32,000 nt of DNA, taken from Promethearchaeota archaeon (GTDB lineage: Archaea; Asgardarchaeota; Thorarchaeia; Thorarchaeales; Thorarchaeaceae). This document shows, piece after piece, positions 6,208 through 30,502 of the stretch (positions within the stretch are counted from its first letter, which is position 1; every line of letters starts with the position of its first letter). The position numbers and the translations under genes are program-made. The stretch spans positions 83,265 to 115,264 of the forward strand of contig JALVPN010000040.1 of the NCBI GenBank assembly GCA_027031765.1. Reading direction: 5' to 3'. The notes below the pieces were generated by a model. It made no database searches, was not told the DNA's origin, and was given only the letters and a program-made list of their open reading frames with translations.

Positions 6208-6314
6208 GGGCTCGTGGCGCAGCCAGGTAGCGCAGCAGGCTTTTAACCTGATGGCCGCGGGTTCAAAGAAGCGCGAGAGTTCCTCGCGGTTGGGGTATCC
6301 CGCCGAGCCCGCCA
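6208..6314 (+). tRNA. tRNA-Lys(UUU) with a 30-nt T-loop intron (6268-6297, position 59/60), CCA encoded
   Basis: Acceptor GGGCTCG/CGAGCCC, anticodon loop CT-TTT-AA, T-stem GCGGG/CCCGC. Removing 6268-6297 restores the loop TTCAAAT. Intron hairpin CGCGAG/CTCGCG and 3-nt bulges AA^G and TA^T. Confidence 0.92.
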
Positions 6315-21569: not shown

Positions 21570-21670
21570 GCCGGGGTATCCAAGTGGCTACGGAGACGGT
21601 CTCGAAACGCATCGTCGAGTGAACCGTTGGGGCAATCCCCGCGTGGGTTCGAATCCCTCCCCCGGCGCCA
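21570..21670 (+). tRNA. tRNA-Ser(CGA) with a 15-nt canonical intron (21607-21621, 37/38), CCA encoded
   Basis: Acceptor GCCGGGG/CCCCGGC, anticodon stem ACGGT/ACCGT, long variable arm TGGGGCAATCCCCG, central helix CTCG/CGAG, G73. Confidence 0.95.
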
Positions 21671-21759: not shown

Positions 21760-21882
21760 TGGTGCGGAGGGCGAGATTTGAACTCGCGAACCCCTACGGG
21801 AGTACCCCGTTGCCCGATTTTTCACTGGAACAACATCCGGGTCCTAAGCCCAGCGCCTTTGACCAGGCTTGGCAACCTCCGC
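21760..21882 (-). tRNA. tRNA-Leu(UAG) with a 35-nt non-canonical intron (21802-21836, 43/44), CCA encoded
   Basis: Acceptor GCGGAGG/CCTCCGC, anticodon TAG, variable arm CCCGTAGGG. BHB with central helix ACCC/GGGT, bulges GG^A and AC^T, intron stem TGTTGTTC/GGGCAACG. TTATAA at 21912-21917. Confidence 0.93.
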
Positions 21883-26508: not shown

Positions 26509-26614
26509 GCCCCAGTAGCAAAGTGGTCTACTGCACCTGACTTGTAAGGTTGTAGTGAGACCTGCTCGTCAAGAAATCAGGAGATCGTGGGTTCAAATCC
26601 CACCTGGGGCTCCA
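26509..26614 (+). tRNA. tRNA-Thr(UGU) with a 29-nt canonical intron (26547-26575, 37/38), CCA encoded
   Basis: Acceptor GCCCCAG/CTGGGGC, U73, anticodon stem CCTGA/TCAGG, central helix CTTG/CAAG with bulges TA^A and AA^A. Confidence 0.94.
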
Positions 26615-27004: not shown

Positions 27005-28216
27005 TCAGTCATCCATCCTTCGGGCCGCTGCTTCAAGAGCACTTACGAGGGGGAGCTGCTCCCCCGTAAGGAAGCTTATGCAGGCACCGCCCCCGGTGCT
27101 AATGTGGGTTATGGAAGACTCAAGCCCCACCCTCCGTGCAAGAACCCCAAGATGGCCGCCACCTACGACTGTAACGCCGCCGCAGCTGGCGATTGCCTCC
27201 AGCACTCTGATAGAGCCATGTGCGAATGCCTCCCGTTCAAAACAGCCGAGGGGGCCATTGGCGAAGACGACGGCTGAACGTCCAATGATTTCCTCAAATG
27301 CCTCAAGTGTCTTGGGCCCAACATCAAGGACTGGACGCCCCTGAAGAGCATCAAGAGAGCAATCGACCCGTCTGCCGTCCTGTTCAATCGCTCCATCTTG
27401 AGGGAGCACGATGATATCGGAGAATTCGGATAGCAAACGACATGCAACATCAAGAACCGAGTCAGAACCGCTGATTGCAGATACATACCTGGGTGGGACT
27501 TGTCCGTTGGCTGCGAGGAAGAGAGTTGCGACAAGGCCGCCAAGCAGTGCATGGTCGACCCGTTCAGAGCGCAGGAGTTTCTCCAGTGTCTTGACCTTGT
27601 CTTGGACTTTGCTCCCGCCGAGTACGAGAGTCCAGGGGTGTTTCGTGGTTGCTGTCACCTCCGTTAGGATGCGTATCTCCTTTTCAAGGAGCCGACCAGC
27701 CACGGATGGTAACACAACCGTGAAACCAACAATAGAGGGCTGGGATCGGTGCGCAGCGCCGAATGCATCATTGACGAACAGGTCAAAGAAATGGTACAGT
27801 TCCTGTACTATCGGTTCCTGAGCGACCACCTCAGGGGGTTCCCGCTTCAGCTCTCCCGGAAAGAAGCGGACATTCTCTAGGACGACTATTTGGCCAACCT
27901 CAACTCTTTGAATGGCCCGTTTTGCGCTCTCGCCGAAAATGTCGTCAACAAAGGACGCATTGAACCCCATCTCTCGTAGAAGACGGACGTGCGACTCCAA
28001 AGACACAAAGTCACTGGATTCGGGACGCCCCTGGTGTGCCATTAGGACAACGGCGCTCTCGGATAGTTCCTCAAGTGTAGGACAGACAGCCCTAATGCGG
28101 CTGTCATCGAGGATTTCATGAGTGTCAGGATTTAGTGAGGAGTTGAGGTCTGCGCGCACAAGAACCCTTTTGCCGGCAACCTCGACATCGTCGAGTGTCT
28201 TGAATGGTAAGCGCAA
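27005..28216 (-). CDS. pgk: Phosphoglycerate kinase
   Basis: RVLVRADLNS, AHQGRP, LENVRF, FVNDAFGAAHRSQPS, LGGSKVQDK, HISTGGGA. Start placed at TTG 28216 because the upstream extension runs into tRNA-Met. Confidence 0.97.
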   Translation of the reverse strand: MRLPFKTLDDVEVAGKRVLVRADLNSSLNPDTHEILDDSRIRAVCPTLEELSESAVVLMAHQGRPESSDFVSLESHVRLLREMGFNASFVDDIFGESAKRAIQRVEVGQIVVLENVRFFPGELKREPPEVVAQEPIVQELYHFFDLFVNDAFGAAHRSQPSIVGFTVVLPSVAGRLLEKEIRILTEVTATTKHPWTLVLGGSKVQDKVKTLEKLLRSERVDHALLGGLVATLFLAANGQVPPRYVSAISGSDSVLDVACRLLSEFSDIIVLPQDGAIEQDGRRVDCSLDALQGRPVLDVGPKTLEAFEEIIGRSAVVFANGPLGCFEREAFAHGSIRVLEAIASCGGVTVVGGGHLGVLARRVGLESSITHISTGGGACISFLTGEQLPLVSALEAAARRMDD

Positions 28217-28271
28217 CTTCTCAGTCTCCGCAGCGGTTTCCGTCGTGCCGGGATAGAAGAGGTCGAGAGGG

Positions 28272-28441
28272 TGGTGCCGCAGGAGGGCGACTCGGCCACT
28301 CCTCAAGACTCGGGGAGCAGCATTCGATCCCTCGACTTCGAGATTTCTCATCTCCGGCCAGCCATTAATATGACCCCACGGGCAACCGGAACACCGGTCA
28401 GATTATGAGTCTCGCGCCCTACCAGGCTAGGCCACTGCGGC
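28272..28441 (-). tRNA. Elongator tRNA-Met(CAU) with two introns: 59 nt at 37/38 (28345-28403) and 34 nt at 59/60 (28289-28322); CCA encoded
   Basis: Acceptor GCCGCAG/CTGCGGC, A73, anticodon stem CGAGA/TCTCG, T-stem GAGGG/CCCTC. BHB1 helix CTCA/TGAG; BHB2 helix ATCG/CGAG with intron stem GCTGCTCC/GGAGTGGC. Confidence 0.9.
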
Positions 28442-28576
28442 ACATCTCGTTGGGCGGAGATACCTCTCGACGACGGTGCTGATGAGATGTGTACGACTAA
28501 TTAAGGTTATGATGGCAGTGCCAGTACAGCCGGACGGGAGCAGCAGGATGCAGAACGCGAGGAGCGACTGACAGGC

Positions 28577-30502
28577 CTATTCAGAAACTGGGCCCTCGTC
28601 CGAGAGTATCGTTTCAATCTCCCGGGCAATCAGATCCCTCACGACTTTCCCGTCAACACGACCCCGCAGCTCCTTCATAGCCACGCCCATGAGGCCGCTA
28701 AGCGCATGTTCTCTATGTTCTAGTACGAAGGCAACACGTTCACGGACAATCTCTGCAACCCGTGCAGATACTTCGCTCATGTCAATACGGCGTAACCCGA
28801 GCTCGTTCACTGCATCATCGACCGTTCCTGTCGGGTTCTCGGCCAAGTGACTCAGGATTGGTACAATGGCCTTGGGGTCTACAGTACCACGTGATATGGC
28901 AATGAACAAGTCGACCAAGTGATCTTGAGCCAATCGTTCTGTTGGCACATTGTCGCGGTGGAGACTGACCAGTGTGTCAAGCAAGGTCGACGCAACTAGT
29001 GTTGGAGAGGCCCCCGTTTTACTGACAATCTCTTCGAACTCATCCCAGTGCACAGACCGTACAAGTTTTGATGCAAGCTCTTCGCTGAGCCCGTAGTCGC
29101 GCACGAAACGTGCCTGTTTGGCCTCAAGTGTTTCCGGCATCATACGCCGAATCCGTTCAAGACGCTCGGCAGTCACCACAACGGGCCGGACATCTGTTTC
29201 AGGATACATGCGTTCTGCTCCAGGCCGTGGGCGTGCATATTTGGATCCACCATCAGGGAGTGGAGTACGGGTTTCGGCCGGAACACCACACAGTGCAACA
29301 CGAGCACGATCTGCAACCGCCTTCAGTGCGGCCTTGGCACGCTCATATGGTGCGGCGACAATTATCACAGCATCATCAGGACTGGCGCGTACTGCCTCAC
29401 GTAGCTGTAGCACCTCATCCTCAGATATACCATATTTGGGCAACTCGTCTGTATGAAACAGCCCTGAAACACCACCCCAGAACCGGGCATAGTCTGCGAG
29501 TTCCGTTCCAAAACGTCGTCCGGGCTGCAGTTCTCTTCCGACCAGACCCGCAAAGCCGGGAAGTCGAAGTGCAAGAACGACCCCACCAGCAGCGGTAGTC
29601 CTACGAATTACCTTCGATTTGCTGTTAACGAACACATCTGTTACGTCGTGAATGTCTTCAGTCAAGCTTGATGCAGTCACATCCCGACGCTGGAGCTCGT
29701 CGCGGATTTCAAGCAGACGCAATTGCCGTAGAGCCTCAAGCTCTACAACACGAGCGAGCATCCCGAGCTCCTGGAGGCCCTTGATTTCAGTCACTGCACC
29801 GTTGCGTATAGAAACATTGATGTCCTGGCGGATTGTGCCAAGTCCTCGTTTCACCCGTCCAGTAGACCTCAGGAGATAGCCAATCTGGAAGGCGACTTGC
29901 TGTGCCGCCTCGGGAGAGGTTATGTCGGGTGCGGTAGCAATCTCAATCAGAGGGATACCGAGACGATCCAATCTGTATACCCTCATGTTCTGGCGGTCAT
30001 CCTCGGACATCTTCCGGGCCGCATCCTCTTCCAAGCAGATTGTCTGAATTCCAATCCGTGTAGTATTCACAACCATATGGCCATCCATGGCAATCACGGC
30101 GGTTCTCTGGAACCCGGATGTGTTGCTGCCATCAATGACTATCTTTCGCATGGGATGAATTTCATCAACGGGTTTTGCATCAAGAAAAGTTGCCATTGTC
30201 AGACAGATGTCGATGGCATCCTCACACATCTCATGCGGGGGCTCCTCATCAGCCTCGACCAGACATGTGGTGTCACTGTAATACTCGTAACAGAATAGCT
30301 TCTTCTTCTTGAACTCAAAGAGTGCCGCAGGATCCACCTCACCCATTTCACTCTGAGTCGGACGCAACCGGCGTACAAAGGTGCCATCGGGTGCATCATC
30401 ACGGATGACCGGAGGACAGTGACAGAACAGTTTTCGCCGAGTATCCAGTTGTTGGTGGAGTTCCAGACCCACTTTGAGACCGATGTCCTTGTAGTCTGGC
30501 AC
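28577..30502 (-). CDS. gatE: Glu-tRNA(Gln) amidotransferase subunit E
   Basis: GLKVGLELHQQL, KIVIDGSNTSGFQRT, CLEEDAAR, RLDRLGIPLIEIAT, RPRPGAERMYPETDV. GTG start at 30502 after GGAGGTG. Confidence 0.97.
   Translation of the reverse strand: MPDYKDIGLKVGLELHQQLDTRRKLFCHCPPVIRDDAPDGTFVRRLRPTQSEMGEVDPAALFEFKKKKLFCYEYYSDTTCLVEADEEPPHEMCEDAIDICLTMATFLDAKPVDEIHPMRKIVIDGSNTSGFQRTAVIAMDGHMVVNTTRIGIQTICLEEDAARKMSEDDRQNMRVYRLDRLGIPLIEIATAPDITSPEAAQQVAFQIGYLLRSTGRVKRGLGTIRQDINVSIRNGAVTEIKGLQELGMLARVVELEALRQLRLLEIRDELQRRDVTASSLTEDIHDVTDVFVNSKSKVIRRTTAAGGVVLALRLPGFAGLVGRELQPGRRFGTELADYARFWGGVSGLFHTDELPKYGISEDEVLQLREAVRASPDDAVIIVAAPYERAKAALKAVADRARVALCGVPAETRTPLPDGGSKYARPRPGAERMYPETDVRPVVVTAERLERIRRMMPETLEAKQARFVRDYGLSEELASKLVRSVHWDEFEEIVSKTGASPTLVASTLLDTLVSLHRDNVPTERLAQDHLVDLFIAISRGTVDPKAIVPILSHLAENPTGTVDDAVNELGLRRIDMSEVSARVAEIVRERVAFVLEHREHALSGLMGVAMKELRGRVDGKVVRDLIAREIETILSDEGPVSE

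Follow-up and report, generated by a model that had tools for sequence, protein, structure and literature searches.

A single-copy elongator tRNA-Met gene of a Thorarchaeia archaeon carries A54 and G60 in its T-loop, and these two letters are real, neither chance nor error; sequence comparison presents them as a convergent variant that is broader than first thought. It is probable, in our judgement, that the gene encodes a functional elongator tRNA-Met with one of a few permitted T-loop states that have arisen recurrently, and that its likeness to eukaryotic tRNAs reflects convergence. The gene is part of the window, by which we mean the whole stretch of 32,000 nucleotides that was analysed and to which all positions refer. 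The window lies within contig C40; the genome, from a hydrothermal vent metagenome, measures 2.95 Mb, is 95% complete and encodes an archaeal RNA polymerase cluster. Its GatE is most similar, at 60-64%, to Thorarchaeota records, and the two findings together place the genome in the Asgard class Thorarchaeia.

As read from the sequence, the tRNA-Met(CAU) gene occupies positions 28441-28272 on the minus strand and consists of three exons and two introns:

28404-28441, minus strand: exon 1, tRNA positions 1-37, with G1-C72, C2-G71 and C3-G70
28345-28403, minus strand: canonical 37/38 intron of 59 nt with a bulge-helix-bulge (BHB), containing a GGGGTCA motif conserved across Thorarchaeia orthologues
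28323-28344, minus strand: exon 2, tRNA positions 38-59, including the 5' strand of the T-stem (28333-28329) and ATCGAA
28328, minus strand: A54 replacing U54 (sequence, second assembly and orthologues)
28289-28322, minus strand: non-canonical 59/60 intron of 34 nt, with three Watson-Crick central pairs and an A54·G mismatch
28288, minus strand: G60 replacing a pyrimidine (sequence and intron-free orthologues)
28272-28288, minus strand: exon 3, tRNA positions 60-76, with A73 at 28275 and a genome-encoded CCA

The T-stem is formed by GAGGG (28333-28329) and CCCTC (28287-28283), and with the introns removed in silico the mature T-loop of the Thorarchaeia tRNA-Met reads AUCGAAG. A BHB is defined by a pair of 3-nt bulges that enclose a helix of 4 bp, with exon and intron helices on either side; the 59/60 intron has both bulges, its central helix of A54-G57 against CGAG has three of four pairs Watson-Crick, and the inner intron stem comprises 8 bp. 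The proposed register is the only one that yields two 3-nt bulges, a central helix and the 8-bp stem, and it is fixed independently by 13 intron-free Thorarchaeia orthologues that read GGG-ATCGAAG-CCC directly. An earlier note on this DNA, which had read an ATCGAA start and deduced G60 from the BHB register, was thus right on both letters. A computed fold recovered both the T-stem and the intron stem, and the product spliced in silico (77 nt) folded into a cloverleaf and was called tRNA-Met(cat) by ARAGORN. The unspliced gene received no call from Rfam or ARAGORN, and a relaxed score combined with long introns in ARAGORN returned only noise.

Among the Thorarchaeia tRNA-Met genes, a GGGGTCA-like motif in the 37/38 intron is kept in 67 of 67 cases; its counterpart is GGGTCAG in Lokiarchaeia and Hermodarchaeia and GGGCTAG in Heimdallarchaeia, and at two loci (L133 and L139) the motif is located in a variable-loop intron instead. 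It is possibly a binding site for a guide RNA or a protein, and a search for C/D guide RNAs complementary to the anticodon or the motif gave no convincing candidate. Introns at 59/60 (L002-L030, L084-L112, L143-L169) are almost always 30-31 nt long in Thorarchaeia and patchily distributed on the tree. Their central helix is often badly paired and relaxed helices are common. Further introns of Thorarchaeia elongator tRNA-Met genes occur in the D-loop, the variable loop, the T-stem and at 56/57.

Three genes with a CAU anticodon are present in the genome: an initiator on contig C217 with the loop TTCAAAT, one gene on contig C144, and the gene described here. The C144 gene is likely tRNA-Ile2, because it has the same acceptor stem as tRNA-Ile(GAU). 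An agmatidine-dependent tRNA-Ile2 identity was ruled out for the gene at 28441-28272, the acceptor stems being GCCGCAG versus GGGCCCG and the other gene fitting. [quoted passage not shown] The archaeal elongator features are all there, namely CAU, G1-C72/C2-G71/C3-G70, A73 and an anticodon stem that is not of the initiator kind (A29-U41, G-C at 30-40, A31-U39). The tRNA also has U20 and G15-C48. The earlier judgement that this tRNA is otherwise of the elongator type is borne out by G1-C72, C2-G71, A29-U41 and A31-U39. Elsewhere in the genome, each of the 31 genuine T-loops without an intron carries U54 together with a pyrimidine at 60. The genome also has two domain hits to the splicing endonuclease family, TrmY-family hits and a GCD14/TrmI-family gene; A58 is present in the tRNA.

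Four further intron-bearing tRNA genes, all with U54, are located in the window and are recovered only partly by standard scans:

6208-6310, plus strand: intron-containing tRNA-Lys, with a T-loop intron
21570-21667, plus strand: intron-containing tRNA-Ser
21763-21882, minus strand: intron-containing tRNA-Leu
26509-26611, plus strand: intron-containing tRNA-Thr

Downstream of the tRNA, the pgk open reading frame (27005-28351, minus strand) was over-extended by ORF calling to an ATG at 28351 inside the tRNA intron. The likely start, a TTG at 28216, follows the tRNA by about 55 bases on the same strand. A constraint on A54 by an overlapping reading frame was rejected, as family similarity of pgk starts at residue 51 and the TTG at 28216 fits; within the extended frame, A54 would in any case fall on a third codon position and be synonymous.

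The letters at 28328 and 28288, for which read support had been proposed as a check, are unchanged in a separate assembly: a Logan contig, assembled from what is probably the source run, covers 27500-28893 at a depth of 14.9 with zero differing letters. Since this contig derives from the same sample, it checks the assembly and is not an independent sample. Elongator tRNA-Met genes readable in Thorarchaeia number 74, and 20 of them have A54/G60, 50 C54/U60, three U54/G60 and one U54/U60. The loop of our gene is accordingly shared with 19 other species, 13 of which do not have the 59/60 intron, and its occurrence in 20 of 74 genomes upholds the argument that two coordinated changes speak against a simple sequencing error. 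With four of 74 genes, U54 is the exception for elongator tRNA-Met in Thorarchaeia and C54 is the majority state, so the premise that archaeal tRNAs nearly always have U54 fails for this tRNA. In the survey of positions 54 and 60 proposed for Asgard and TACK tRNA-Met, the relatives within Thorarchaeia are mostly not U54 (70/74), and many archaea and Asgard families retain U54. Elongator tRNA-Met accounts for all but one of the complete non-U54 tRNAs in 87 Thorarchaeia genomes. Pattern scans miss genes with introns in the D- or T-loop, with extra variable-loop bases or without an encoded CCA, and frequencies outside Thorarchaeia elongator tRNA-Met are therefore lower bounds. Three incomplete loci look, from their sequences, like integration sites of mobile elements: a second copy of a tRNA-Met 3' end (G104:C83:129-159), a tRNA-Met gene broken after the T-stem (L163, genome G105), and a C54 'tRNA-Ala' in G099 (L325) that was dropped as a lone 3' fragment.

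The two positions change together. A mixed state, A54/U60 or C54/G60, was found in none of the 74 Thorarchaeia genes, and in independent pairs on well-supported branches of an RpoB tree, position 60 changes with position 54 in six of six cases (sign test, p ~0.03), in line with the coupling of A54 and purine 60 that had been proposed. On this tree, a quick single-gene tree in which genome G106 looks mis-binned, the 54/60 state changes about 10 times (10-11) and close sister species differ; a tree of the 37/38 intron requires nine changes as against 10-11, a difference that speaks neither for nor against allele transfer. Sister species that differ at 54/60 usually do so across the whole gene, which makes an exchange of alleles or noise from binning the probable source of some changes; part of the recurrence may therefore owe nothing to new mutation. 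Position 20a of the D-loop is missing from all A54 genes, but an association of A54 with a short D-loop reaches only p ~0.125 in independent pairs and is not claimed. When genes were collected into lineage-by-isoacceptor units, which were grouped by hand and are not fully independent, 13 of the 18 units with A54 had purine 60, as against none of the nine with C54 (Fisher p 0.0006). Outside Thorarchaeia the coupling is incomplete, with loops such as AUCGAGU, AUCGAAU, AUCAAAU and AUCAUGC; the exceptions mostly carry G59 or U58 (AUCGAGU, AUCAUGC).

A second line of evidence does not hinge on allele exchange or binning: in 200 Asgard genomes scanned with position 60 left free, A54 with purine 60 was also encountered in tRNA-Phe, tRNA-Arg(CCU), tRNA-Ile(GAU), tRNA-Tyr and tRNA-Lys, and C54 with U60 in tRNA-Tyr and tRNA-Asn. 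The Ca. Heimdallarchaeum family, which includes aukensis and endolithica, has A54 in all 28 readable elongator tRNA-Met genes, with 14 AUCGAAA, four AUCGAGA and 10 AUCGAGU loops as counted by eye. These genes (L267-L293, L319, L320, L415, L416) start with GGC (G2-C71) and not GCC, and some also have A20. U54 is found in elongator tRNA-Met of other Heimdallarchaeia families, and U54/G60 in that of Hermodarchaeia and other Asgard groups. The elongator tRNA-Met T-loop is unusually degenerate in Lokiarchaeia, where genes with U58 (L129, L131, L141, L170, L181) read AUCAUGC, AUCAUAC or CUCAUAU, L122 has C55 and L124 has G54/A60. Lokiarchaeia tRNA-Tyr (L402-L406, L412-L414), a second hotspot, alternates between A54/purine 60 and C54/U60, and its anticodon introns have CGCG and CGTCAGC blocks in common.

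Non-U54 loops extend beyond Asgard archaea. A search of 251 Thermoproteota genomes for tRNAs ending in GGC-A retrieved 24 true non-U54 genes, 23 of them elongator tRNA-Met: 15 with C54, one with AUCGAAU and seven with AUCGAGA, the latter group being Brockarchaeota. When the GGC-A ending was no longer required, Bathyarchaeia tRNA-Thr and Nitrosotenuis tRNA-Arg(UCU) came in as well, and the exact loop AUCGAAG is found in tRNA-Arg(UCU) in closed genomes of Ca. Nitrosotenuis cloacae and aquarius (L437, L438, L439). Among 121 Halobacteriota genomes, seven, including at least one Methanothrix, have a C54 elongator tRNA-Met, all nine non-U54 genes retrieved are elongator tRNA-Met, and A54 was not found in the genomes searched; a strict-pattern search of named ANME and Methanothrix genomes gave no match. 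Recurring as it does across isoacceptors and phyla, the coupling of A54 and purine 60 is a structural alternative and not an Asgard or initiator marker. The view of A54/purine 60 as a eukaryotic mark does not survive its presence in Nitrosotenuis tRNA-Arg, Bathyarchaeia tRNA-Thr and Brockarchaeota tRNA-Met, nor the U54 of Asgard initiators (42 of the 42 with a readable loop among 43 matches).

How the loop might work can be outlined. The splicing endonuclease would excise both introns, and A54 would then form a purine-purine trans Watson-Crick/Hoogsteen pair with A58 atop G53-C61, by analogy with A54·A58 pairs, which are of the same kind but longer, 12.5 versus 9.8 angstrom (PMC7566577). The resulting A54·A58 fold would be that of eukaryotic initiator tRNA and tRNA-Ala. 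Purine 60 would be the packing change that accommodates this pair, while C54·A58 would instead retain a pyrimidine at 60. Position 54 would escape the usual U54 modifications, and the tRNA is expected to decode internal AUG normally, as an ordinary elongator. A54/G60 would have arisen several times over, with U54/G60, a frequent state of archaeal elongator tRNA-Met, as the easiest starting point, and its further spread within Thorarchaeia was probably by exchange of whole alleles. Simple tolerance does not account for the prominence of elongator tRNA-Met as the chief hotspot of three phyla; the frequent G60 of this tRNA does give it a one-step path to A54/G60.

In another reading, a non-U54 loop (A or C) would be a selected identity mark by which a factor such as EF1A, aIF2, TiaS or a modification enzyme recognises elongator tRNA-Met as distinct from both other tRNAs with CAU, with a polarity reversed relative to eukaryotes. 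Non-U54 loops are indeed concentrated in elongator tRNA-Met (all but one in Thorarchaeia, 23/24 in Thermoproteota, 9/9 in Halobacteriota), U54 is kept in the initiators and Ile2-like genes that were read, and positions 54 and 60 affect initiation accuracy in yeast (PMC3950347). We nevertheless regard such a mark as rather unlikely: every CAU tRNA has U54 in many archaea and Asgard families, A54 arises in non-CAU tRNAs too, and two of the scans were limited to tRNAs ending in GGC-A. Heimdallarchaeia have been proposed to be the archaea nearest to eukaryotes. The fixation of A54 in the Ca. Heimdallarchaeum family, half of whose loops equal those of human and yeast initiators, could be taken to mean that gene conversion between the two Met genes passed A54/A60 from an Asgard elongator to the eukaryotic initiator. 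To this we assign a slim chance, as the T-stem of the human initiator (GAUGG) matches Asgard initiators (GATGG/GGTGG) and not elongators (GGGGG/GCGAG), other Heimdallarchaeia families have U54, the motif of two bases arises readily in unrelated tRNAs, and the Thorarchaeia gene has G60 and not A60. A broader scenario joins both ideas: A54·A58 with purine 60 would be an old feature of archaeal elongator tRNA-Met that was fixed as AUCGAAA in part of the Heimdallarchaeia and became the source of the eukaryotic initiator loop, with position 54 separating the Met tRNAs in reversed polarity; we consider this improbable.

Trivial explanations fare worse. The failure of Rfam and ARAGORN to detect the unspliced gene could point to a sequencing or assembly error or to a dead gene copy, which is scarcely credible given identical letters in the separate assembly, the same loop in 19 other species, perfect stems and its position as the sole elongator tRNA-Met gene found. 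Reading on from exon 2 into the insert gives ATCGAAT, and a cut at 60/61 would then leave U60; this cut yields no central helix, however, and G60 stands in intron-free orthologues. Nor does the intron seem to impose A54, because the intron base opposite is G or A and never T in seven of seven genes, and the intron is therefore not adapted to A54. Either version of this explanation is very unlikely. The reading of a functional elongator tRNA-Met with a recurrent, convergent T-loop state is the one we retain.

U54 has been treated in reviews as universal outside the eukaryotic initiator and a few animal tRNAs (PMC7912444, PMC7566577, PMC9023262), and A54 is presented as a eukaryotic trait in the papers covered. 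No report of an archaeal tRNA with A54 or C54 was found in this literature, which did not extend to the survey by Marck and Grosjean (2002), the source likeliest to list archaeal exceptions at 54; the negative is thus no proof of absence. The Nitrosotenuis AUCGAAG genes are already public in closed genomes and offer, with tRNA-Arg(UCU), an accessible system for testing this loop. The survey shows A54/purine 60 and C54/pyrimidine 60 to be recurrent natural states concentrated in elongator tRNA-Met, ranging over Asgard archaea, Thermoproteota and, for C54 only, Methanothrix-like archaea. With this recurrence, A54 is no longer a eukaryote-only marker, and the A54 loop does not speak for initiation of a eukaryotic type in Thorarchaeia. 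The data yield a covariation rule for the T-loop fold, drawn from natural sequences, as well as matched natural alleles for testing A54 outside initiation; for annotation, they mean that non-U54 genes with T-loop introns escape standard scans.

Among known systems, the eukaryotic cytosolic initiator has a T-loop with A54·m1A58, A60 and a network of A20 and A59 (PMC3950347, PMC7912444). Our gene has A54, U55-C56-G57-A58-A59, purine 60, the Met anticodon and C3-G70 in common with it, but differs in having G1-C72 instead of A1-U72, G60 and U20 instead of A60 and A20, and no run of three G-C pairs at 29-41/30-40/31-39. The resemblance to eukaryotic initiator tRNA and tRNA-Ala that the earlier note had pointed out therefore stands as one of sequence; taking it for a signature specific to eukaryotes or typical of initiators is not supported. 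Initiators of human and yeast have the loop AUCGAAA (PMC12775451, PMC7957392), which is identical to 14 elongator loops of the Ca. Heimdallarchaeum family. In animal tRNA-Ala(AGC), A54·A58 occurs with purine 60 and is linked to two paired purines at 15/48 (Westhof et al. 2020, PMC7566577); pairs of this type have not been seen in archaeal or bacterial tRNA-Ala (PMC7566577). The Thorarchaeia tRNA resembles this subclass as an elongator with A54, A58 and purine 60 (AUCGAAG), the pair itself being predicted here, and departs from it in the ordinary archaeal G15-C48, CAU and C3-G70 in place of a purine-purine 15/48, an Ala anticodon and G3·U70. Primate tRNA-Ile(GAU) with C54·A58 (PMC9023262) is a precedent for C54, rare in eukaryotes as opposed to the majority state of the Thorarchaeia orthologues. 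Asgard multi-intron tRNA genes with non-canonical BHB introns are known (PMC11291895), and our gene has the same combination of a 37/38 and a non-canonical intron, differing by the A·G helix mismatch and in nothing material. The elongator tRNA-Met of Pyrococcus furiosus, which has G60 with U54 (PMC7668247), shares CAU, the GCC acceptor start, A73 and A59/G60 with the Thorarchaeia tRNA, and is distinguished from it by a modified U54 in place of A54; with G60 beside U54 already known in an archaeal elongator tRNA-Met, A54/G60 can be one step away.
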